A stretch of 64,000 nucleotides of DNA from Bacillota bacterium (GTDB lineage Bacteria; Bacillota; SHA-98; UBA4971). The position numbers were made by a program, and so were the translations under genes. Below are positions 3,752 through 56,370 of this stretch, one piece after another (the first letter of the stretch is position 1; each line of letters starts with the position of its first letter). The notes under the pieces were generated by a model. That model saw only the letters and a program-made list of their open reading frames with translations. It was not told the origin of the DNA and did no database searches. The stretch spans positions 6,789 through 70,788 of the forward strand of contig DAOSZN010000011.1 of NCBI GenBank assembly GCA_035593725.1, given 5' to 3'.

Positions 3752-4783
3752 TTATCCGGACTCATGCAAGTTTAGCAAATCTGATACGGTGAAAAACCGG
3801 TAACCTGCATTCCGTGATGCGTCCACAATTCTTGGAAGGGCTTTGAGGAATACTTTGGTTGGATGAGCCAGGATGATAGCTCCGGGCGCGATTTTCGGCA
3901 CAACTCTTCCTAATATTTTCTCCGGGTCTTCAGTCTTCCAATCAAGTGTGTCAATGGTCCACATTGTTGTTGTATATCCTAATGAAGCAGCTGCCGAAAC
4001 AACTGTCAGGTTGCATTCGCCGTAGGGCGGAGCAAAGAGTTTGCTTGGCTTGACTCCTAAGCTGACAAGGAGCTTCTCATTGTCTGAAATAAGCTGTTTT
4101 ATCATAGGTTCGCTCATTTTCTCCACATGGACATGCTGATATCCGTGGTTCGCCAGCTCATGCCCTTCTTCGCTGATAAACATTACCATGTCTGGGAATT
4201 TCTGAGCCCACTCGCCGTCAATGAAGAATGTTGCCTTCACATTCTGTTCCCTGAAAATTTCAAGTAATTCAGGAAGACAATCTTCGCCCCAAGCTACGTT
4301 CACTGCGATTGCCATAGCCTGTCTTCCTGTATCAACACGGTAAACAGGACTGAAGTGACGCTTGGTTATTGCCGGAGCGATTACAGTTCGCGCTAATTCC
4401 ACGTTATCCCCTGGTTTTGCCTTCATGGAGCGGTCTACAGTCAGATCCACGTCAATATCAAGGCCTGGGGCTTCCGGGATTAACTCGCCTGTCTCCTTAA
4501 AGATCATAGCATCTTTCGGCGCTGTTCGTTCTTGTTCTGCCATGGCTTCTACAATCCGCCTAACCTCATTAGGCAGATATCCTGAGATGAGCCGTGTCTC
4601 CAGGGTAACTCCGGGCTTTACACCGTAGACCATTCGCCTGATATCATCAAGAGATGAGACAAGAACTACCGTGAACACAAAGATTAGAACGGCGAATGCC
4701 ATAAGAAGCGTCATCTCTCGTGTAATCACAATTGCGGTGAGACGGCCTTCACGTTTGGGAGTCAGTCTGTCCTTACGTTTCAT
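3752..4783 (-). CDS. Membrane-anchored polysaccharide deacetylase (CE4/NodB domain), PdaA-like
   Basis: NodB domain with GHELANHGYQH and TxDTLDW-type motifs; N-terminal TM; start ATG at 4783 preceded by AAAGGAGGGA (ORF extends to 4843). Confidence 0.8.
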   Translation of the reverse strand: MKRKDRLTPKREGRLTAIVITREMTLLMAFAVLIFVFTVVLVSSLDDIRRMVYGVKPGVTLETRLISGYLPNEVRRIVEAMAEQERTAPKDAMIFKETGELIPEAPGLDIDVDLTVDRSMKAKPGDNVELARTVIAPAITKRHFSPVYRVDTGRQAMAIAVNVAWGEDCLPELLEIFREQNVKATFFIDGEWAQKFPDMVMFISEEGHELANHGYQHVHVEKMSEPMIKQLISDNEKLLVSLGVKPSKLFAPPYGECNLTVVSAAASLGYTTTMWTIDTLDWKTEDPEKILGRVVPKIAPGAIILAHPTKVFLKALPRIVDASRNAGYRFFTVSDLLNLHESG

Positions 4784-5594
4784 CCAGAAGGTCCCTCCTT
4801 TCGCCCCTGCTTTGTGAGGGCATTTGTATAGGTCGCATTTCACCTGTATGGGGATGTATATAATAATCGCCTTCGAGTAAGAGTTGACTCAAAGGGACTA
4901 TCTTATATCCTTGCTCCATAATCCCTTCAATGATTTGAGGCAAGGCCTCGGGAGTGTTGCGACCTGTCACATGAAACCGGATGATGGCGCCTTTATGCAG
5001 CTTTCTTAGCACCCTCTTTTCCATGTCGTTTGAGGATGTCCCGCGCCAGTCCAACGAATCTATGCTCCACATCACTGTTTCATACCCCAGTTCTCTGGAA
5101 GCCTCTATCACTTTATTGCTGTACTCACCATAAGGAGGCCTAAAAACCTCGGGCGTTTGGCCTGAAACCTTCTCAATGTGTTTATGAGCCTTCTCCAGTT
5201 CCCGTTTGAGCTCAGCTTTAAGAAGAGAGTTGGAGTGAGGAAGGGAATAAGTGTAGTTGCCGAGTTCGTGGTTGCTCTCAATAATCTTGTTTACGGAATC
5301 CCGATGTTTCTCTATCCATTCTCCGGACAAAAAGAAGATTGCGTTGACATTATACCTTTCCAGAACACTTAGGATTTCCAACGTCAGGTCCTTCCCCGAT
5401 TCGCCTTCAAATGTCAAACTGACCTTATTTTCCGGTGTAAACACGGAATACACCGGAACAAGCCTACCGGACACGGTAGCAATAACTGCTTTAGCTGCTG
5501 TGAATAACGCTATTTGAGAGGTATCGATGATAATAAGCAACACTATGAGTATGAGAGCCGGTCTCTTCCAATTTTGTCCGATGACGATCAACAT
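4773..5594 (-). CDS. Polysaccharide deacetylase family protein (CE4 paralog, motifs diverged)
   Basis: NodB-like domain (RPPYGEYS, SIDSLDW) with N-terminal TM; canonical TFDDG reads TFEGES and the His motif reads HELGNYTYS; start 5594 after GGGGAGGA. Confidence 0.75.
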   Translation of the reverse strand: MLIVIGQNWKRPALILIVLLIIIDTSQIALFTAAKAVIATVSGRLVPVYSVFTPENKVSLTFEGESGKDLTLEILSVLERYNVNAIFFLSGEWIEKHRDSVNKIIESNHELGNYTYSLPHSNSLLKAELKRELEKAHKHIEKVSGQTPEVFRPPYGEYSNKVIEASRELGYETVMWSIDSLDWRGTSSNDMEKRVLRKLHKGAIIRFHVTGRNTPEALPQIIEGIMEQGYKIVPLSQLLLEGDYYIHPHTGEMRPIQMPSQSRGERRDLLDET

Positions 5595-5695: not shown

Positions 5696-6154
5696 CTACT
5701 TTGCGAAATAGTGATTGCCGATGACAGTCGTGACGGGCCTTGTGAAAATCCAGTAGGATGTGACGCGAGCGGGATTATAGAAATACAGGGCGCCATAAGT
5801 GGGGTCCCGACCTGACAAGGCCTCTCCGGCAGCTCTATAGGAATCCGGGTCCGGTGTGCAGCCAATCTGTCCGTCGTAGACTGACGTGAATGCCCAATCA
5901 TCGTAGATGACACCGGAGACAGTCGAAGGGAACAGAGGACTGCGAACCCTATTCATAACTACAGCGCCAACAGCGACTTTACCGAGGTATGGTTCGCCTC
6001 TTGCTTCACCTGATATTACCTGAGCCAGTAGTTCATAGTCAGATTGTCCTGCGCTCGCAAGGTCCTCCTCTGCGCCTGGAAGACCCATGCATAACACCAT
6101 GAAAGGAGCCAGGACACAAATGAGTATAATGAAATAAGCTTTTCGGTTTCTCAT
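5696..6154 (-). CDS. SleB/CwlJ-family cell wall hydrolase (Hydrolase_2 domain)
   Basis: ISGEARGEPYLGKVAVGAVVMNRV is the SleB/CwlJ catalytic-domain signature; signal peptide; start ATG at 6154 after GGGGG. Confidence 0.75.
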   Translation of the reverse strand: MRNRKAYFIILICVLAPFMVLCMGLPGAEEDLASAGQSDYELLAQVISGEARGEPYLGKVAVGAVVMNRVRSPLFPSTVSGVIYDDWAFTSVYDGQIGCTPDPDSYRAAGEALSGRDPTYGALYFYNPARVTSYWIFTRPVTTVIGNHYFAK

Positions 6155-6273
6155 GGTTTCGCCCCCTTTATGAAAAGACACGAATAACCTCATAAAGGCG
6201 AACTTATGAGCGGATTATAGCATGGGGATCCCGGGAGGACAACCGGAAGATGCTGCTAAAAGAGGAATGAATG

Positions 6274-11806: not shown

Positions 11807-12931
11807 TCAAACAGGCCAGGTTGCAAGCTTCAATTGCATAATGATGAGCCTCAGAAACTGCCTTATGATTTGGGACGCCGCTACACTGGTGGAGAGCGGA
11901 ATAAGGCCGGCCAAGGCTACCTTGGCGACATCCTTGCCATGCGCGTTCCTATAAAGCTTGCTTATGCCTTTTGCGTCAATAAGGACTGACCCCACTTTCA
12001 TTCGTACAAGAAAAGTGCTTGCCATTCCTTTACGCCCTTTGTCGAGAAAATCTTCGACTGACGAATGGCCTCCCACAATTACGATGAGTTCAGCGCCTTT
12101 CTCGTAGGCAAGCAGGAGTGCCAGGTCTTCACTGATCCCGGGGGCTTGACATTCCACTGCCTCAAGTCCGAGCTGCTTTAACCTGTCTCTTCCCGGGGAT
12201 TCCCCATTGGGGTAAACGTGCACCAGAAGCTCAGAACCGTGTTTTAATGCCCGGTCGCTTGCGCTGTCCATGTCCCCTATGATGATATGCGGTGCGATAC
12301 CTAAACGCAAAAGCGTATCTGCAGCCCCGTCCACAGCGATGACAACAGGCCTCATTTCATCAATGTAAGGCCTGATTGCCCTAAGATCGTCATAGTATCC
12401 CCGTCCCCTCGCCACGACAAGGACATGTTTCTTGGCAATCTTTGTGCGAATGCGTGGGAAGCTGATGTCTCTTAAGATAATCGATCTTTCTTGCTTTGCA
12501 TGTTCTATTGTGTTGAGAATGAATGCGTCAACGTGGTCAGATAGGCATGTTCTCGCCTCTTTCAATTTCTCCAAGACTTCGGCTTTGGTGACAATTATTC
12601 CTTGACAAACCGGCCTTCCGTTCTTCATTAATGTGTTGCCGGAGATCTCCACAATCTCCCCGTCCCTCACAGTTTCCATCACCTTAGGTCCTACACGATC
12701 TAACAAACAAATCCCGGCATCGCATAGATGAAGCGGGCCAGGATTGTAATACTTGCCTGTAATGGAAGCTTTAACGTTGACGACTCCTCGAACCCCTGCT
12801 TGTATCAGCGCATCACAAGCTACCTGATCGATATCTTCGTGATCCAGAATTGCGATTTCCCCTCGACATACGCGAGAGATAAGGCTTTTCGTTCTTCTGT
12901 CCAGTCTCGCTACGCCCTTGACCTTCATCAA
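11807..12931 (-). CDS. steA: SteA-like putative cytokinetic ring protein (thiamine pyrophosphokinase catalytic-like domain)
   Basis: TPK-like motif VIAVDGAADTLL...PHIIIGDMDS; about 370 aa; paired with MctB-family gene as in actinobacterial steA loci. Confidence 0.6.
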   Translation of the reverse strand: MMKVKGVARLDRRTKSLISRVCRGEIAILDHEDIDQVACDALIQAGVRGVVNVKASITGKYYNPGPLHLCDAGICLLDRVGPKVMETVRDGEIVEISGNTLMKNGRPVCQGIIVTKAEVLEKLKEARTCLSDHVDAFILNTIEHAKQERSIILRDISFPRIRTKIAKKHVLVVARGRGYYDDLRAIRPYIDEMRPVVIAVDGAADTLLRLGIAPHIIIGDMDSASDRALKHGSELLVHVYPNGESPGRDRLKQLGLEAVECQAPGISEDLALLLAYEKGAELIVIVGGHSSVEDFLDKGRKGMASTFLVRMKVGSVLIDAKGISKLYRNAHGKDVAKVALAGLIPLSTSVAASQIIRQFLRLIIMQLKLATWPV

Positions 12932-13091: not shown

Positions 13092-13874
13092 CTAACTTGC
13101 TCTGATATCAAGGCGAATCTTATCAGCTATTCTGGCAATAAAAGCAGAGTTTGTGGGTTTTCCTTTTTCGCTGCTGACTGTGTATCCAAATAAGCTGTTT
13201 AAGAGTTCGATATTTCCTCTGGTCCAAGCGATTTCTATCGCATGTCTGATAGCCCGTTCCACTCTTGCTGCGGTAGTATCAAATATCTCAGCTACGCGCG
13301 GATACAGTTCCTTCGTGACACTGTTTAAGAGGGTAGGTTCACCTATTACAAGGATGATCGCTTCTCTGATGTAAGTGTAACCCCTGATATTCGCAGGAAT
13401 TCCCATATCATGGATAAGTCTTGTCACCTCTGAATGAAGATCCCTTGGGGGAGGAACGTAGTCTACTGTCTTTCTTCCTTTAATTTCTTGTGGTGACGAC
13501 ATTACTTGGCGTATCCTGTCTGCCAATGTTTGAACGTCAAAGGGTTTTACAACGTAGTAGTCTGCTCCCATCTCAGTAAGTTGCTGTATTATTCGCTCTT
13601 GGCCCAGGGCAGTGAGAACCACGAATCTTGGCTGATGGTTTGAATGCTGTTCAGAAAGGCGCTCAAGCACTCCCACACCGTCCAAGTGAGGCATGATAAT
13701 GTCAAGAACCACAACATCAGGCTCCAACTCTGATATCTTCCTTAGAGCCTCAATGCCGTCATATGCCACCCCAACCACTGACATATCAGACTGTGAATTA
13801 AGAAATCCTTTTAAGAGATCACACAAATCATGGTTATCATCAACTATTAGAACACGTGTAGCGCCCTGTCCCAT
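13092..13874 (-). CDS. spo0A: Stage 0 sporulation protein A (response regulator, Spo0A_C DNA-binding domain)
   Basis: Receiver domain (RVLIVDDN...VLDIIMPHLDG) and the Spo0A-specific C-terminal domain (IHDMGIPANIRGYTYIREAI); ATG at 13874 (MGQGATRV) preferred over ORF start 13946. Confidence 0.93.
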   Translation of the reverse strand: MGQGATRVLIVDDNHDLCDLLKGFLNSQSDMSVVGVAYDGIEALRKISELEPDVVVLDIIMPHLDGVGVLERLSEQHSNHQPRFVVLTALGQERIIQQLTEMGADYYVVKPFDVQTLADRIRQVMSSPQEIKGRKTVDYVPPPRDLHSEVTRLIHDMGIPANIRGYTYIREAIILVIGEPTLLNSVTKELYPRVAEIFDTTAARVERAIRHAIEIAWTRGNIELLNSLFGYTVSSEKGKPTNSAFIARIADKIRLDIRAS

Positions 13875-13912
13875 GATACCACCCCAATCAATACTCCTTG
13901 GATTAGAGACTG

Positions 13913-13919
13913 TGTCGAC
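13913..13919. promoter_or_regulatory. 0A-box-like heptamer TGTCGAC (6/7 to TGTCGAA) in the spo0A leader
   Basis: Between the candidate sigma-H promoter and the spo0A start; matches the Spo0A-box only if start 13874 is correct. Confidence 0.25.
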
Positions 13920-13937
13920 TTCCCTGACGCCGTATGA

Positions 13938-13963
13938 ATTCGCCATCTCATAGCGAACTCCTC
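13938..13963 (-). promoter_or_regulatory. Candidate sigma-H type promoter in the spoIVB-spo0A intergenic region (GAGGAGTT-N11-GGCGAAT)
   Basis: Minus strand -35-like GAGGAGTT (RAGGAWWT), 11-nt spacer, -10-like GGCGAAT (RNNGAAT), about 65 nt upstream of the proposed spo0A ATG. Confidence 0.3.
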
Positions 13964-14012: not shown

Positions 14013-15386
14013 CTATCGTGATAATGCCGGTTGATCCAAGATTCCTAAGTATTCATCCTGAGGCAGCATGAAACCTGCGTCTCGCACAAGCCACTCAGCA
14101 AGAACGCCGTATCCTCTCGTCTGATCTGATACAAACACATGGGTCAATACGCCTGCCAGCTTGTTGTTTTGGATGATGGGACTGCCTGACATGCCTTGCA
14201 CTATGCCACCGGTCATTGACAGTAGGCGCGGATCAGTGACTCGAACCACTAATCCTTTGATTTGAGGGCTTGTTTGGCGTGTTACCCGCTGAATTTCCAC
14301 CTGAAATTGCTCTATTCTGTCTTCTTGTAAGACTGTATAAAGGTAGGCAGGGCCGGGCACAACTTCGTCTGCAAGGGCTACGGGAATCGGTTCCGAAAAA
14401 TGAGGATTGACAGGCTTAGTATTGAGTCTGCCGAAAATACCGAATTTTGTATTACGCTCTATTGTTCCGATTATGTCTTCTTCTCCGCTGAAACTACCTA
14501 TTTTCTCTCCTGGCTGGCCATGGCTGCCCTGGTGAATACCGAGAATTTGAGCGGTAACTATCATGCCGCTGGTTACATCCATCTCCCTATTGGTAGAGAC
14601 ATCTGTAATTACGTGCCCTAGTGCACAGTAAAGACCTGATGTAGGATGGTAAAAAGACAGAGTGCCTACGCCGGCGGCATTTTCTCGAACCCATATGCCC
14701 AATCTATAATAGGTTTCCTTTTCGCCTATGGATACCTCAGCCTCATCGGACAGGCTTTCATCATAGACAGGAACCGGCTTCAGCCTCACCGTAATTTTCT
14801 TGGAATTGCGTAGGATGTTGAGTTCTGCTTGCCTACCGCTTCTGCCGATGTCGTCTATTGTGCGTTCTACCTGCGATTTGCTGTTGATAGCTTGTCCATT
14901 GATGCGAAGAATAACATCTCCAACCTCTATACCTGCTTCACGTGCAGGATAGTGCCAGCTGCCGTCAGGCCCGATTATGGGATAATGCCCTATCACCACG
15001 ACGCCTCCGGAAGGCAGCAGAACCCCAATGGAGTGGCCTCCGGGAAACACCCGGACCTCCGGAACCACGCTGACAATCATTCGCTTGAGTGGGATCAAAT
15101 CCCAGAGACGCACTTCGAGGCTGCTTTCGCCTTGACTTAAGGAAACAAGCTTTACTCCGCCGTTAAAAGGTAAGAGCTCCAGGCCTGAGGTGGTTGTGCG
15201 TAAGTCAAGGGGCCGGCCTAGTTGAATCTCCTTGGTATTCCCTTCAATAAGTGTGATTCTGCCCGGTATTCCGCCAACGGTGAGGAAATAAGCAGCAAGA
15301 CATACCAGTGCAAGCACTATGAATCTCTGGATAAGTTGAATTCCAAAATGCGGATTTTTCTTATTCGGCGGTTGATGCAGCCCCAA
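14013..15386 (-). CDS. spoIVB: SpoIVB stage IV sporulation serine peptidase (PDZ + S55 domain)
   Basis: PDZ segment (GIEVGDVILRINGQAINS) and S55 catalytic region (GTLSFYHPTSGLYCALGH); classic position immediately upstream of spo0A. Confidence 0.9.
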   Translation of the reverse strand: MGLHQPPNKKNPHFGIQLIQRFIVLALVCLAAYFLTVGGIPGRITLIEGNTKEIQLGRPLDLRTTTSGLELLPFNGGVKLVSLSQGESSLEVRLWDLIPLKRMIVSVVPEVRVFPGGHSIGVLLPSGGVVVIGHYPIIGPDGSWHYPAREAGIEVGDVILRINGQAINSKSQVERTIDDIGRSGRQAELNILRNSKKITVRLKPVPVYDESLSDEAEVSIGEKETYYRLGIWVRENAAGVGTLSFYHPTSGLYCALGHVITDVSTNREMDVTSGMIVTAQILGIHQGSHGQPGEKIGSFSGEEDIIGTIERNTKFGIFGRLNTKPVNPHFSEPIPVALADEVVPGPAYLYTVLQEDRIEQFQVEIQRVTRQTSPQIKGLVVRVTDPRLLSMTGGIVQGMSGSPIIQNNKLAGVLTHVFVSDQTRGYGVLAEWLVRDAGFMLPQDEYLGILDQPALSR

Positions 15387-50939: not shown

Positions 50940-51389
50940 CTACATAGACTCGTCGTCACCGTTTTGGGGTTCAGGAAGAATCTCCATAGAGCGAGTGGCT
51001 TCCAATTCAACTTCAAGAGCTGATACAAGCCGCTTTTCAGTCTCAAGCTCCCTCTTTTTGACATCAATTTCTCCTTTCAGTCTTTCCAGCTCCTGTGATA
51101 ATCGGAGATTGCTTTCCTGCGCTTCGCCCAGTTCTTTCCCAATAGTGTCCACTTTTGTGTTACATGACCTAAGTGAAAGCCTGAGTCCGATTTCCCTGAC
51201 GAAAGTAAAGAGACCTACAGCCAGAGCTCCTGCTGCAGCAGAGCCTAAGATTACGATTGCTAAAGAAATATCTGTGAGCTGCCACTTAAAAAATGAGACA
51301 GACACCGGAGTAGAGTTTTGAATGGCAAACATTGCCACAAGAACAGCAAATGCCAACGCTACTATGGCAATGGCAAGCAATGACATCAT
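50940..51389 (-). CDS. LapA-family (DUF1049, YrvD-like) membrane protein with coiled-coil tail
   Basis: Two N-terminal TM helices with the LapA-type pattern, then coiled coil; conserved slot upstream of recJ. Confidence 0.6.
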   Translation of the reverse strand: MMSLLAIAIVALAFAVLVAMFAIQNSTPVSVSFFKWQLTDISLAIVILGSAAAGALAVGLFTFVREIGLRLSLRSCNTKVDTIGKELGEAQESNLRLSQELERLKGEIDVKKRELETEKRLVSALEVELEATRSMEILPEPQNGDDESM

Positions 51390-51467: not shown

Positions 51468-53240
51468 CTAGCGCTTATTGCCTTTGGCGCTTTCTCGCCT
51501 TCCTGCTCTCACGAGATTTACCAAAATATCCTTGTCAAACTCATCTACTATATAAAGTTTACCATGAGCCACCTCAACAAGGCGAGAAAGAAAATCGCGG
51601 TTAGGTTGAAGGCCTACGCACATAAAGGTAATCTTGTTATCGGCTATGCGTTTTGCAGCTGTGAGAGCATCTCTTGCAGGATCCGCGGTCCAGCGATTCA
51701 TCGTGGGGATGCCGTCAGTTATCAGGATGAGGAGAACGTCTTTCAGTTTTTTTGCTTTGATGAAATCCAGCGTGTCAGCAATACCTGCTGCAAGGGGAGT
51801 CAGGCCTTGAGGTTGGATTCTCTGCACTCCTTCTTCAATTGCCTTCTTGCTTCTGGTAGACGTAATGTGGATCTTGACATCGCGTTCTTGGAATGTCAAT
51901 ACGCTTATTTTCACTCGACACGCCATAGTCAAGTGGCGTATCAGATACTTGGCCGCTCGAATCCTTCTCCCTACCATACTTGCGCTGGCGTCTATCAAGA
52001 GGCAAATTTCCGGCGGGCGAGTGGGACGACGTCGATAAACGTATATATCTTCACGCAAAAACGGTGATGAACCGGCCCCGTTTATCTGACGTCGGACCAA
52101 GGAATTAAGAACCGTCTCAGGAACGGCGATAGTGTCACACCATTCTCCTTCGTTGAGTGCTCTTGTGGTTTTTGCAATCCTCGGTGCATCGCCCCGGGTT
52201 TTCTTGCGGAAGCGACCTTCCTCATATTGAGGAAACTTCGTCACTATGGGCATTTTCCTGATGAGGCGTCTAATTGCTGCCTCAATTTCTGAAGCATACG
52301 CAGTCAGGATGCTTTTTACTTCTGTGCCTTTCGGGGTTAGGGCAAACTTGCCCGTCTCACGTCCTATGAGTTGAAAAGAGGTAAGTCTTTCTATGACTTC
52401 GTCAAGATCCCCGACATCTGAACGAATATCCGGTGGAATACCGCCTGATGACGTGAGACTTTCAAGGAGTTTCGCCATATTGACTCTTCCGCCGAATTCC
52501 TCTGCCATTGATGCCACAGCGTCCACCCGGGATTCTTGATTCAGAGAATTCCAATCGCGGTCAGCAGGCCTTCGACCTGCTTCGTTCAGGTACGAGTCGA
52601 AAATACTGGAATACGGAGAAAGATCTGCCTTTCCTTTCCCCTCTAAATGAGATATACGCTCCACCTTGCGGATTTCAACTCCCTGACGCGCAAGTTCCGC
52701 TTCTATGGCACTGACAATATAGAACACAACTGCCAGGCAATTGTCGGGTAACATTGCAGCTAGGTGTACATGGTTATAGTGGGCTTTTCTCAGAGAGAAT
52801 TTCCTGCCGTAATTCAAAGACCCGCTGATCCTGCCTCCACCGCTTCCTGTCTGCATATCAATGAGATCCAAAAGTTCGCCTGCTGTGGGAAACAGAAGCC
52901 CTCTGGCATGATGAAGCATAGGATTACGGAAATACTCATGCACAGCCTGCTTAATTGCTTCCGCAACTCCCCTGTGATCAATTTCACCGATTTCATGGAA
53001 AACATCTATGTGAAGTATTTCGTTTTTCTTCAACCTTGAATAGAAAGCGCAACCTGCATCCTGATTGATGACAATCTTCACTTCGTCAGGTTCAGCGGGA
53101 TAAATCACATGTACTCTACGGCTGATCACTGTAGTCTCGCCAATCCTGAGCCCTCGTCCCATCCGGAATTCAGTCAGCATCAACTTGACCAGGCGATGAC
53201 TGTCATATCGTAAGAAGGCCAAGTGGCGATAATCATTCAT
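51468..53240 (-). CDS. vWA (von Willebrand factor A, MIDAS) domain protein with a large uncharacterised N-terminal region; ChlD/CobT-C-terminal-like partner of the upstream AAA+
   Basis: C-terminal vWA with MIDAS DASAS and ILITDG; N-terminal about 380 aa without recognised motif; ATG at 53240 overlaps the upstream stop as ATGA. Confidence 0.8.
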   Translation of the reverse strand: MNDYRHLAFLRYDSHRLVKLMLTEFRMGRGLRIGETTVISRRVHVIYPAEPDEVKIVINQDAGCAFYSRLKKNEILHIDVFHEIGEIDHRGVAEAIKQAVHEYFRNPMLHHARGLLFPTAGELLDLIDMQTGSGGGRISGSLNYGRKFSLRKAHYNHVHLAAMLPDNCLAVVFYIVSAIEAELARQGVEIRKVERISHLEGKGKADLSPYSSIFDSYLNEAGRRPADRDWNSLNQESRVDAVASMAEEFGGRVNMAKLLESLTSSGGIPPDIRSDVGDLDEVIERLTSFQLIGRETGKFALTPKGTEVKSILTAYASEIEAAIRRLIRKMPIVTKFPQYEEGRFRKKTRGDAPRIAKTTRALNEGEWCDTIAVPETVLNSLVRRQINGAGSSPFLREDIYVYRRRPTRPPEICLLIDASASMVGRRIRAAKYLIRHLTMACRVKISVLTFQERDVKIHITSTRSKKAIEEGVQRIQPQGLTPLAAGIADTLDFIKAKKLKDVLLILITDGIPTMNRWTADPARDALTAAKRIADNKITFMCVGLQPNRDFLSRLVEVAHGKLYIVDEFDKDILVNLVRAGRRESAKGNKR

Positions 53241-54688
53241 CTTATTCTGAGATCCTCCTCGGTAAAGAGAATATCCCCGCCTGCAAGTTGGAAAAGGGAT
53301 TTGGCCTTCCCGGGAGGCGCGCATATGTCAATATCCTTAGGATCAGCTATGCTCGTCCCCTCGCCTGTAGCATAATGCTCTCCATGGCCTCTTTGTCCTC
53401 CGGAGGAACCGGCGCAGGATGCAAGCCCTCTTTGCTGCGGATTGCGAGACGCTCTTGACACATCAGGACGAATCAGTCCTATACCCCTCATAAGTCTGTC
53501 CCAAAGGGAATCCGGCTTCATGAAATTATCACCGCGCCTTGCCAAATCCCTTGGATTGTGTGACGAGGTTTCTCCTTCATCTGAGTCGTCTTCGGAATTT
53601 TCCGGCAGCCTGTCTTGCTCCCTCGGCCTGCCGTGCCTGGATTCATACTCATCAAGAAATTTGCTGATGTTAATAAGTGTCGCGCCGTCAACGCGGTGGC
53701 GAAGGGTAATAGGCAATACTCCCCTGATATCATCCAGCAGCACTCTGGTTCTGGAGTCGAGAGCAGCCCTTGCCCGAGCGCCAAGAGCAATCGCTTCCAC
53801 AGCTCTTAGGCTTTCTATGCCAAAACTGACATACAGTTCAGCCAAGACTGACGCCAGCTCGTCAGGTAAGGCAATCCTTTGCAACAGCTCTGCTTTTTGA
53901 GGGACAAATCCCCTGTCTTGAGGCCATAAAGATTCATCGGAAGCTGCATGTCCGCACAGGATCTTCTTTACTGTGTCATGGTTTTGCGGACGTCCCATGT
54001 TTACCACAAAATCGAATCTGTCAGATAATTGCCTTCTTATATCCTCAAGCGCCCCGGGTTCCTCATCAGGGTTACTTGCAGCCCAGACACAACACATGAC
54101 CGGAAGGGTGAACGTTGGCAAGCCTGTCTCCTCTACCTGAATGCGTCCTGGTTTTGTCCCCATGACATCAAGGAGGACATCTGTAAGTTCAGGAGAGGTA
54201 TCTGCCAATCTGTTTATCTCATCCACAAAAATGATGCCTCGATACGCCCTGGGTATGATCCCCGGCAACAACGCTATCTCCGGTTTGTTCGGGTCAACTA
54301 CTTTCGCCAAATCTATGCTACCAACAACAGTTCCGAGTTTTGCAGCATGAGAAATCTCAAGAAACGGAACGGAAACAGACTCAGTGCCTAAGAGAGAGAG
54401 GTCTTCAGGCCCCAGATTCCGATGGATCGGGCAGTGCGGATTACCGGGATCACAGTTGTACCAACACCCCGCAATCCTTTCTATGGAAGGAAGAATGTTC
54501 TTCATAGCCCTAACAACTGTAGTCTTGCCTGTGCCACGAAGACCTTCCACATGAACGTGAATCGGAGTACCTGCAAGAAGAGACAGGACAGACATTTCCA
54601 AGGCGTCAACTAACGGTTGATTGCCTTCATGCACTATAAGGTCATGATATCTTTTCAATATGGGCACCTCCAAAGTGTAACGCGGCAT
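53237..54688 (-). CDS. Mg-chelatase ChlI/BchI-like AAA+ ATPase with acidic low-complexity C-terminal tail (ChlD-linker-like)
   Basis: Walker A GLRGTGKTT, Walker B IIFVDEINRL, sensor-1 VWAASNP, Cys/His insert CWYNCDPGNPHCPIH at the BchI position, alignable with BchI/ChlI core; about 130-aa acidic/Gly-Ser tail (ENSEDDSDEGETSS...). Confidence 0.85.
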   Translation of the reverse strand: MPRYTLEVPILKRYHDLIVHEGNQPLVDALEMSVLSLLAGTPIHVHVEGLRGTGKTTVVRAMKNILPSIERIAGCWYNCDPGNPHCPIHRNLGPEDLSLLGTESVSVPFLEISHAAKLGTVVGSIDLAKVVDPNKPEIALLPGIIPRAYRGIIFVDEINRLADTSPELTDVLLDVMGTKPGRIQVEETGLPTFTLPVMCCVWAASNPDEEPGALEDIRRQLSDRFDFVVNMGRPQNHDTVKKILCGHAASDESLWPQDRGFVPQKAELLQRIALPDELASVLAELYVSFGIESLRAVEAIALGARARAALDSRTRVLLDDIRGVLPITLRHRVDGATLINISKFLDEYESRHGRPREQDRLPENSEDDSDEGETSSHNPRDLARRGDNFMKPDSLWDRLMRGIGLIRPDVSRASRNPQQRGLASCAGSSGGQRGHGEHYATGEGTSIADPKDIDICAPPGKAKSLFQLAGGDILFTEEDLRIR

Positions 54689-54736
54689 CTGTAGACAGGT
54701 ACTGATATTATGGCCTTGCCGTAATCAGCGCATACC

Positions 54737-54751
54737 GCGAAACAAGTGCCC
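54737..54751 (-). promoter_or_regulatory. Candidate sigma-54 (-24/-12) promoter upstream of the ChlI-like AAA+ gene: GGGCAC-N5-TCGC
   Basis: Minus strand GGGCACTTGTTTCGC: GG and GC correctly spaced, 2 mismatches to TGGCAC-N5-TTGC; about 47 nt upstream of the ATPase ATG, just downstream of the sigma54 activator gene. Confidence 0.35.
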
Positions 54752-54817
54752 TCATTTCCCAAAGATGTAACTTATCTACCGATTCAAGCATTGCAAGGAA
54801 GCTTCAGGTTATCCTGA

Positions 54818-56293
54818 TTATGTATCCACTTGTATGCCAAGTTTTTTCAAGCGGTATTGAAGAGTCTGGCGAGGTATTCCGAGGAGGCGGGCAGTTTGAG
54901 AAACATTGCCACAGGATTCAGCAAAAGCCCTGCGGATAAGGGCGTTTTCCAATTCTCGGACAGTTTCACGGAAATCGCCTGTTAATTCTATCTCCTGAAT
55001 AACATCATTGAGTTGATGAGGCAAACTCCCAGGAAGAGATGGCGACTTCCTTAAATGATCCGGAAGGTGCTCCGAAAGAATCATGTCCCCGTCCAGCATG
55101 TGCATGGCGCCTTCAATTGTATGCTCCAATTCACGGACATTGCCTGGCCAATCATAGGAAAGGAATACTTGGAAGACTTCTCTCGAGACACCCTTAACAT
55201 TCATCATTAGCTGACTGTTGAATCTGTCAATGAAATGCCTTATTAAGAGAGGTATGTCATCGCGTCTTTCCCTGAGCGGTGGGATTTCTAAACAGATGAC
55301 GTTTAACCTATAATACAAATCATTCCGCAGCAACCCCAGGGAAACCGCTTCCTCAGGCCTCCGAGTCATAGCTGCGACAACCCGCACATCCACTTGGCGT
55401 TCATTTATGTCGCCTACACGGCGCAAACGTTTCTCTGAAAGAACCCTCAGTAATTTCGCTTGCAGGCTGGAAGGCATGGAATCAATTTCATCAAGGAAAA
55501 TCGTGCCTGAATCAGCCAGCTCAAAAAGGCCGGGTCGGTCATAAGCGCCTGTAAACCCGCCTTTTGTCGTTCCAAAGAGTATCCCCTCAAGCAACCCCTC
55601 AGGAAGAGCAGCACAATTCTGCGCGATAAACGGCCCCTTTCCCCGCGGGCCTGCATTATGAATCGCTTGCACAAACAGCTCTTTCCCGGTTCCCGTTTCA
55701 CCGTAAACCAGCACAGCCGACGTGCTTCCTGCAGCCCTTTGGGCTTTTCGCTTCAGGTCCAGTATACATTCGCTCTCGCCTATTATGTCTCTGAACGTGT
55801 AACGGGCGCGATTTGAACCTATATCCCTTCTGCCTTCGCGCTTAGCGAACAACTCCATCTGAAGGTCAACAATACGATGAGCCATCTCCTGTATGAGTGT
55901 TATATCACGGGAAACTTCCACAGCCCCGATAAGCCTGCCTCCGACTGTCACAGGCAGAGTGGAGTTTACTGTGGTTATCGTATCCCCTTTGTAATTCATG
56001 AAGGTTTGCTCCCTGTTAGACACAGGGTGTCCGGTTTTGAGCACTTGAAGCAGGGTGCTGGTTTCTCGGCACAAAGACGGAAACACCTCGAGCACATGTT
56101 TACCAACCACTTCATCAGGTTTTAGGTTGTCGAGGGTTGCAGCTGCCCTGTTGTAAAAAACGGTTATGCCGTTTTTGTCTACTACTTGAATCCCTTCATC
56201 TATGGAATCAAGGATCAGATGGAAGTTTTGAAGGAGTTCATCGGAGTCGTTTTCCATATTGAGATTGGAAGGTTCCGGGCCCATCACACCCAT
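54818..56293 (-). CDS. Sigma-54-dependent transcriptional activator (PAS sensor + AAA+ sigma54-interaction domain + Fis-type HTH)
   Basis: PAS N-terminus; Walker A GETGTGKE; GAFTGA-type loop GGFTGA; Walker B IFLDEI; C-terminal HTH (QTARLLGIPRQTLQYRLKK); ATG 56293 after GGGGTGAT preferred. Confidence 0.88.
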   Translation of the reverse strand: MGVMGPEPSNLNMENDSDELLQNFHLILDSIDEGIQVVDKNGITVFYNRAAATLDNLKPDEVVGKHVLEVFPSLCRETSTLLQVLKTGHPVSNREQTFMNYKGDTITTVNSTLPVTVGGRLIGAVEVSRDITLIQEMAHRIVDLQMELFAKREGRRDIGSNRARYTFRDIIGESECILDLKRKAQRAAGSTSAVLVYGETGTGKELFVQAIHNAGPRGKGPFIAQNCAALPEGLLEGILFGTTKGGFTGAYDRPGLFELADSGTIFLDEIDSMPSSLQAKLLRVLSEKRLRRVGDINERQVDVRVVAAMTRRPEEAVSLGLLRNDLYYRLNVICLEIPPLRERRDDIPLLIRHFIDRFNSQLMMNVKGVSREVFQVFLSYDWPGNVRELEHTIEGAMHMLDGDMILSEHLPDHLRKSPSLPGSLPHQLNDVIQEIELTGDFRETVRELENALIRRAFAESCGNVSQTARLLGIPRQTLQYRLKKLGIQVDT

Positions 56294-56370
56294 AATTATC
56301 ACCCCTTGGGCGCAACCGCTGATCTTTGGGCATCGTACCTATAATCTTCTGGACGAATCCCCGCTTTCCT

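Follow-up and report, generated by a model that had tools for sequence, protein, structure and literature searches.

The window analysed here is a 64,000-nucleotide stretch of DNA from an uncultured member of the Bacillota (contig DAOSZN010000011.1 of assembly GCA_035593725.1, positions 6,789 to 70,788). On its minus strand, between a lapA-recJ-relA-dtd block and ddl, lie three co-directional open reading frames: a PAS-domain sigma-54 activator (gene 1), an AAA+ ATPase that resembles Mg-chelatase subunits (gene 2), and a protein that ends in a von Willebrand factor A (vWA) domain with a metal-ion-dependent adhesion site (MIDAS; gene 3). An earlier note, made from the letters alone, had described this layout correctly and had presented the three genes as a sigma-54-controlled, orphan chelatase-like module. 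We established the domain content, conservation, and synteny of genes 2 and 3 and the statistics of their promoter motif. Given these data, we would put at even chances a reading in which the pair forms a two-gene operon that has its own forespore-type (sigma-F/sigma-G) promoter, is expressed in the forespore, and encodes a chelatase-class AAA+/MIDAS machine of endospore-forming Bacillota. The main features of the locus are:

54818..56293, minus strand: gene 1, RocR-like PAS-domain sigma-54 enhancer-binding protein, 491 amino acids
53237..54658, minus strand: gene 2, ChlI/BchI-class AAA+ ATPase, 473 amino acids from TTG at 54658 (483 amino acids from ATG at 54688)
51468..53240, minus strand: gene 3, 590 amino acids, with a family-specific N-terminal domain, a winged helix, and a vWA/MIDAS domain
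53237..53240, minus strand: stop codon of gene 2 and start codon of gene 3, overlapping in ATGA, read directly from the letters

Gene 2 had been given as 53237..54688 (483 amino acids). The gene itself stands, but its true start is probably TTG at 54658 rather than ATG at 54688, because a ribosome-binding site (GGAGGTG) precedes the TTG and homologues begin there. The overlap with gene 3 is just as the earlier note claimed, and the stop and start of the two genes also overlap or abut in relatives (loci L001, L003, L004, and L088 of the synteny comparison below). In this arrangement, genes 2 and 3 are translationally coupled.

The ATPase and the vWA protein

Gene 2 contains a Walker A motif (GLRGTGKTT), a Walker B motif (IIFVDEINRL), a VWAASNP motif, and a Cys/His insert. 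In Pfam, it matches only AAA_lid_2 and, at a borderline score, Mg_chelatase. Its NCBIfam matches are all below the cut-offs: TIGR02442 (153 bits, profile positions 28-356), BchI (109 bits; the curated cut-off for TIGR02030, ChlI/BchI, is 466.95), and BchD (102 bits). When a family profile built from 20 homologues was compared with all PDB sequences, it matched ChlI and BchI only (E of 1e-30 to 1e-34), and no chain of MoxR, RavA, CbbQ, or NorQ was found in this search. The match of gene 2 to the MoxR family in Pfam (AAA_3) was 22 bits, which is below the cut-off of 27. As the profile matches only ChlI and BchI in the PDB, gene 2 belongs to the ChlI class and not to MoxR or ComM, and the ChlI-like core that had been claimed for it is borne out. 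The refuting condition that the earlier note had set itself (a gene 2 of the ComM/YifB or MoxR family, and a gene 3 lacking a MIDAS) thus does not apply.

The ChlI-class AAA+ core of gene 2 is intact (Walker A, Walker B, sensor 1, and arginine finger), and K55 of Walker A, D156/E157 of Walker B, N206, and R224 are invariant across 20 diverse homologues. Judging from these residues, gene 2 should be a catalytically competent ATPase, and it presumably forms a hexameric ring. Three other features stand out:

54422..54466, minus strand: Cys/His knuckle insert in the AAA+ domain (C75, C79, H85, C86, H89; GCxYNCxPxxPHCPxH)
53336..53656, minus strand: low-complexity acidic/Gly-Ser linker, whose length and sequence vary among homologues
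53240..53335, minus strand: conserved C-terminal peptide (DPxD...APPxKAxxLxxL...TEEDL)

All five knuckle residues are invariant in the same 20 homologues, and the knuckle may bind zinc. The low-complexity tail of about 130 amino acids that had been reported is present; it follows the lid domain, is presumably disordered, and ends in the acidic C-terminal peptide, which is conserved beyond the variable linker in most homologues. (Pfam gave no match to the tail at E ≤ 10.) The peptide is possibly a ligand for the MIDAS or for a partner, which is speculative. A lone ATPase homologue, 54% identical and 420 amino acids long (L090, 8001-9263), belongs to a cluster that is named for BchI of Thermacetogenium phaeum. 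It has no adjoining vWA gene and no forespore-type motif, and it retains the C-terminal peptide.

Gene 3 has full-length homologues, and we used 104 of them to build an AlphaFold2 model (predicted local distance difference test score, or pLDDT, of 86; predicted template modelling score, or pTM, of 0.72). The model resolves three modules:

52575..53240, minus strand: N-terminal alpha/beta domain, amino acids 1-222
52251..52538, minus strand: winged-helix domain, amino acids ~235-330, with a helix-helix-helix-hairpin topology
51516..52028, minus strand: vWA domain with a complete MIDAS (D417-x-S419-x-S421, T481, D509)

Pfam places the vWA domain at residues 412-570, and all five MIDAS residues are invariant in the 104 homologues, which confirms the earlier assignment of this end of the protein. 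Gene 3 matches TIGR02442 with 70 bits, at profile positions 420-616, and it matches ChlD/BchD (TIGR02031) with 31.9 bits, through the vWA part alone and far from the cut-off of 499.55. The winged helix has weak profile matches to the winged helices of Sso10a, CggR, and SloR and to HTH_45 / HVO_A0261_N. Residues 1-390 have no significant match in Pfam, and the N-terminal domain has none at E ≤ 10. Against the PDB, the family profile of gene 3 gave matches in the vWA domain and weak ones in the winged helix, and nowhere else. The N-terminal domain (~220 amino acids) is confidently modelled, and its fold has no match in the PDB either, so the impression that this part of the protein is novel held in the Pfam, PDB-profile, and modelled-fold comparisons alike. 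Among 1.84 billion representative proteins, an exhaustive profile search found the domain in just 171, which with few exceptions are 550-650 amino acids long and have the domain at the N terminus and the architecture of gene 3.

The N-terminal domain is rich in invariant polar residues: S40, H44, D61, H77, H82, H157, and E180, and in the main subfamily also D79, H154, H159, and a QTGTGGGR loop. Written as motifs, the main subfamily has D61-A-G63, Y67, H77-x-D79-x-x-H82, a T131-G-x-G-G-G-R loop, H154-x-x-H157-x-H159, and E180. In a divergent subfamily whose vWA proteins are 26-32% identical (subfamily B), S40, H44, D61, H77, and E180 are still invariant, and H82 and H157 are found in at least 90% of sequences. 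It is reasonable to suppose from this pattern that the domain holds a metal or catalytic site. We considered a LAS-type or PHP-type metallohydrolase as an explanation for the His motifs and dropped it, as the order of the motifs differs and there is no fold match. At one locus (L087, 160-3716), two vWA-protein genes, encoding 583 and 585 amino acids, lie in tandem, and a sigma-F-type -10 box (GGCCAGATTA) lies 51 nucleotides upstream of the first.

Distribution and genomic position

In a scan of one genome per species, we found relatives of gene 3 in 188 species genomes. The carriers include Thermosediminibacter, Tepidanaerobacter, Caldanaerovirga, Thermovorax, Fervidicola, Thermovenabulum, Sporolituus, the Symbiobacteriaceae, Caldinitratiruptor, and many metagenome-assembled genomes; none of the relatives listed is from Bacillus or Clostridium. 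The nearest species genome to the window organism is 92% identical in the gene 3 protein.

To compare gene order, reference proteins were mapped onto 84 loci, 80 of which are genome loci. In 76 of the 80, the vWA gene is immediately preceded by the ATPase gene, in the same direction. (In the remaining four, the sequence starts no more than ~850 bases from the vWA gene, too close to show its upstream region.) The order is nearly universal: (tgt-yajC-)secD-secF-[ATPase-vWA]-(lapA)-recJ-apt-relA-dtd. The pair is a distinct, vertically inherited family whose place on the chromosome is fixed across many Bacillota. Within 8-10 kb at ~90 loci, we recognised no adjacent gene for a client such as ChlH/CobN or NorB. 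The pair is therefore an orphan in the sense that no client gene adjoins it, as had been noted, but it is not a local oddity.

What does not hold up is the trio as a conserved unit. The activator adjoins the pair only in L001-L019 (19 of 84 loci), which form the clade that is at least 64% identical to the window protein, and it is absent from the other 65.

In the divergent subfamily, the pair lies next to gerM (Germane domain) and murI and not next to recJ (L085, 2167-5578; L086, 170-3917; L091, 8001-13889). A glutamate racemase gene is present in L085 and L091, and L091 also has rph and a Ham1/RdgB-family gene. This context resembles the racE-gerM-rph-ysnA region of B. subtilis.

In the window, the vWA gene is followed by one for a membrane protein that has a LapA domain and a coiled-coil tail (50940-51389, minus strand), and the same is true in Sporolituus (L004). 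Because the LapA-domain gene yrvD occupies the equivalent spot ahead of recJ in B. subtilis, we consider this gene to be part of the ancestral block and not of the module.

The promoter region and the sporulation background

Three elements lie in the gap between genes 1 and 2:

54706..54735, minus strand: forespore-type promoter GTATG-N15-GGCCATAATA, with the -35 at 54735..54731 and the -10 at 54715..54706
54737..54751, minus strand: -24/-12-like element GGGCAC-N5-TCGC, the putative sigma-54 promoter of the earlier note
54746..54764, minus strand: conserved box CTTTGGGAAATGAGGGCAC, kept throughout the activator-bearing clade in a comparison of leaders and overlapping the -24-like GGGCAC

The sigma-F consensus is a -35 of GYATA, a spacer of 14-16 bp, and a -10 of GGnnAnAHTR (Wang et al., 2006, as given in bioRxiv 10.1101/2023.12.01.569620). 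In the window, GGCCATAATA matches the -10 exactly and GTATG has one mismatch to the -35. The sigma-G pattern is GHATR-N17-18-CATnnTA, and the window promoter can also be read in this way, as GTATG-N18-CATAATA. The earlier note had seen the sigma-54-like element and had missed this promoter, which abuts it immediately downstream and is better conserved. Indeed, the forespore-type block is kept in all 19 loci of the activator-bearing clade, and in L020 it takes the form GAATG...GGCCATACTA.

We counted exact matches to GGnnAnAHTR within 150 nucleotides upstream of the ATPase gene at 77 loci. The -10 box is present at 54 of them, as compared to 5.0 on average and at most 10 in shuffled sequences. 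The reverse complement has it at 2 of 77 loci, and the box is also rare upstream of recJ (2/44), relA (6/64), secD (5/26), tgt (0/20), and hisS (0/27). A -10 box together with a -35 that has at most one mismatch is found at 31 of 77 loci (0.4 expected). The enrichment persists after de-replication to 49 dissimilar upstream sequences, 35 of which have the -10 box (2.2 expected, maximum 8). Also, anchoring on the -10 alone recovers a G-n-A-T signal, which was not selected for, at the expected 15-bp spacing. Most other loci have -10 variants with one mismatch, such as TGCAATACTA, GAGCAGACTA, or TGGGAAAATA, and in many loci the promoter element is preceded by a terminator-like hairpin and a T-run. 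Mother-cell motifs (sigma-E and sigma-K patterns) were found upstream of the ATPase gene at none of 78 loci. A generic scan for sigma-70 promoters and terminators stayed at chance level, and comparison of the leader and the locus with Rfam gave no RNA family.

The conserved box has the form CTTTGGGAAAYnAGGG(G)CAC and lies directly upstream of the forespore-type promoter. It is in the same place in L001-L019, even where the GG or GC dinucleotide of the sigma-54-like element is lost, and the window copy (54764-54746) may be a binding site for a regulator.

The window organism has an endospore programme, as the window carries sporulation genes:

13092..13946, minus strand: Spo0A (358 bits, cut-off 200)
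14013..15386, minus strand: SpoIVB peptidase (429 bits, cut-off 305)
5696..6193, minus strand: SleB-like cortex-lytic enzyme (under the cut-off)
3752..4843, minus strand: YlxY/PdaB-like polysaccharide deacetylase (under the cut-off)

Among the carriers, Tepidanaerobacter is listed as a clostridial spore-former and carries the Spo0A-Q:AH-DMP-GerM signature of engulfment. We found no published link between a chelatase, vWA, COG1239, or COG1240 protein and either sporulation or the secDF-recJ locus, and in the sporulation papers that we searched we found no mention of a chelatase-like AAA+/vWA pair.

Elsewhere in the window, a sigma-G-type sequence (GAATG-N18-CATACTA, ~13035-13005, minus strand) lies 74 nucleotides upstream of a SteA-like gene (11807-12931), which encodes a putative cytokinetic ring protein (445 bits) and comes right after spo0A. 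Only three intergenic forespore-type matches in the 64 kb are well placed, and this sequence is one of them.

Interpretation and comparison with known systems

Because the operon has its own sigma-F/sigma-G-type promoter, from which it would be transcribed, the machine is most likely made in the forespore, that is, inside the developing spore. In the mechanism that we envisage, the ATPase would dock on the vWA/MIDAS protein, as BchI does on BchD and NorQ on NorD. ATP would then be used to remodel, or to insert metal into, a client that is held by the N-terminal domain and the winged helix. Taken one step further, the pair would be a forespore-specific chelatase-class motor with a MIDAS adaptor whose His-rich domain, of new fold, binds metal or substrate, and together, as a sporulation factor that had escaped notice, they would drive an ATP-dependent insertion or remodelling step that non-model endospore formers require for spore maturation. 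We propose this more specific version tentatively and would not bet on it.

Several observations weigh against forespore expression or against the proposed mechanism. The consensus that we used is that of B. subtilis, applied to distant Clostridia, and the match to the -35 is only moderate. Neither subfamily B nor the solo ATPase homologue has a clear forespore motif. Some carriers have been described as not forming spores in culture. Also, spoIVB is a forespore gene in B. subtilis, and in the window it is preceded by GCATA-N15-GGCAGGGTAA (15528-15499, minus strand), in which the -35 is of perfect sigma-F type and the -10 is off at two positions. As this match is only partial, the B. subtilis sigma-F consensus is not validated in the window organism, to which it may transfer imperfectly. 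Docking of the ATPase on the MIDAS protein, metal binding by the N-terminal domain, and any client are suggested by analogy with other systems. The idea that the C-terminal peptide of gene 2 is a MIDAS ligand is weakened by its presence in the homologue that has no adjacent vWA gene. Finally, our search covered 8-10 kb per locus, and a CobN/ChlH-type partner could be encoded elsewhere in the carrier genomes.

A different explanation, which we think unlikely, is that the operon depends on sigma-54: the PAS activator would sense a small-molecule or redox signal, and the pair would perform a chelatase-like or MoxR-like maturation of a vegetative metalloenzyme. Gene 1 does have what is expected of an enhancer-binding protein, and the earlier description of it was accurate: Pfam finds PAS, Sigma54_activat (199 bits; the AAA+ domain), AAA_lid_14, and a C-terminal Fis-type helix-turn-helix (HTH_8, 48.5 bits), and the translation contains a GAFTGA-type loop (GGFTGA). 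In two sub-clades that differ in their further-upstream contexts, it immediately precedes the pair, and in the closest relatives a GG-N10-GC element (GGGCAC and T(T/C)GC) has a fixed place, with no stronger sigma-54 site nearby. (No site with one mismatch or fewer was found anywhere in the activator-clade loci.) However, the activator is missing from most loci, and it belongs to a broad RocR-like group. Its top NCBIfam match is PrdR (388 bits versus a cut-off of 795); orthologues that are at least 63% identical are confined to the activator-bearing clade, and beyond them is a continuum of homologues, 52-60% identical, that are abundant in other contexts. (The nearest homologue outside the clade is in T. 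oceani, where the gene context is uninformative.) The element upstream of gene 2 is present as had been reported and keeps GG-N10-GC, yet it has three mismatches to TGGCAC-N5-TTGCW. Since even sites with two mismatches or fewer occur in the window at chance frequency (28 observed, 32.6 expected), it does not stand out as a motif. It is closer to the consensus (two mismatches) in L001, L005, and L009, but the GG or GC dinucleotide is broken in 6 of the 13 activator-bearing loci that we inspected (L011, L012, L013, L016, L017, and L019), all of which retain the activator and have a conserved sigma-F/G-type element adjoining. So, "sigma-54-controlled" does not serve as the defining trait of the pair, and sigma-54 input is possible at most as a lineage-specific overlay, for which the evidence is weak.

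The other explanations that we considered concern what the pair acts on. It might act on DNA, perhaps on the forespore chromosome, with the winged helix binding DNA, the His/Asp-rich domain working as a nuclease-like, phosphoesterase-like, or other nucleic-acid-directed module, and the ATPase remodelling the substrate. The winged helix, the invariant His, Asp, and Glu of the N-terminal domain, and the constant downstream neighbour recJ are consistent with this. But recJ is weak evidence for function because it lies in a housekeeping block in which secDF, apt, relA, and dtd are no less constant, and subfamily B is not near recJ. Also, the N-terminal domain matches no nuclease in fold or motif and winged helices often serve protein contacts instead, so we doubt that DNA is the substrate and think it rather improbable. 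It is quite improbable that the two genes simply supply the ChlI- and ChlD-type subunits of a class I chelatase for cobalt, nickel, or magnesium, with the CobN/ChlH-type subunit encoded elsewhere. The top profile matches (TIGR02442, BchI, and BchD) and the only PDB relatives of gene 2 (ChlI and BchI) point that way, and L089 has cbiMNQ-type genes (CbiM, CbiN, and CbiQ) and an ATP-binding cassette ATPase gene ~8 kb away. However, the scores fall short of the curated cut-offs by a factor of 5 to 15, the vWA protein has two unrelated domains in place of the AAA-like N-terminal domain of ChlD, and a cobalamin or chlorophyll cluster is found at none of the ~90 loci; a forespore-type promoter, moreover, is present. 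Least credible of all, to us, is that the pair serves in conflict or in defence against phages as a mobile system of the MoxR-vWA type. AAA+/vWA pairs are known in such systems, but the weak bpMoxR match in Pfam is to gene 1 only, genes 2 and 3 have no PADLOC match, and gene 2 is of the ChlI class and not MoxR. Furthermore, the pair keeps its syntenic position and has diverged in step with the host genes, a third gene for an effector is missing, and the GC content is uniform (flat throughout the locus region).

If the pair is indeed a forespore motor, it would tie the Mg-chelatase motor family to endospore development for the first time. The promoter signature suggests a role in the developing spore, and such a role would imply a conserved, energy-dependent sporulation step in Clostridia-type lineages that studies of B. 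subtilis and C. difficile could not have reached. Cultured carriers are available, among them Tepidanaerobacter, Thermosediminibacter, Sporolituus, and Caldinitratiruptor. ATP-driven metal insertion and complex remodelling are carried out time and again by AAA+/vWA-MIDAS pairs, and each characterised pair has turned out to have a distinct client. Should the forespore assignment fail, the family would still stand as a ChlID variant that is naturally split and as the source of a new domain. As defined here, it comprises 171 representative clusters in at least 188 species, with a fixed genomic address and a modelled domain that has no known fold relative.

Among characterised systems, Mg-chelatase (BchI/ChlI and BchD/ChlD; PDB 1G8P, 2X31, 6L8D, and 8OSF) has an ATPase of the same AAA+ class as gene 2, and both systems have an acidic low-complexity linker. 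Here, however, the linker is on the ATPase and not on the vWA protein. Gene 3 lacks the AAA-like N-terminal domain of ChlD/BchD and has the novel His-rich domain and the winged helix instead. There is no ChlH gene nearby, and the scores are 109 versus 467 and 32 versus 500. The Cys/His knuckle is present in the family alignment of gene 2, and BchI is not known to have it.

The fused ChlI-ChlD family TIGR02442 ("putative cobaltochelatase") is the top family for both genes, which match it at complementary positions (28-356 and 420-616). Therefore, the pair looks like a TIGR02442 fusion that has been split inside the linker. TIGR02442 itself is defined for a single protein (641 positions, at least 779.45 bits), whereas here 153 and 70 bits fall on two genes, ~390 amino acids of new domains precede the vWA half, and there is no cobalamin context. 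The proposal that a ChlD is split across two genes is supported in that the two genes match the two halves of a ChlID-type family; the score of gene 3 to the ChlD family is far below the cut-off.

NorQ-NorD, CbbQ-CbbO, and RavA-ViaA share with this pair the logic of a ring ATPase and a MIDAS adaptor that act on a third protein or a metallocentre. In contrast to those systems, gene 2 is not of the MoxR class, and the flanking client genes (norB or the Rubisco genes) have no counterpart here. The promoter architecture of the B. subtilis sigma-F/sigma-G regulon (GYATA-N14-15-GGnnAnAHTR) recurs in the window and at most homologous loci; the relatives listed include none from Bacillus or Clostridium. 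The AAA+/MIDAS logic was already known; what this family would add is its domain architecture, its N-terminal fold, its fixation in the genome, and its probable expression during development.

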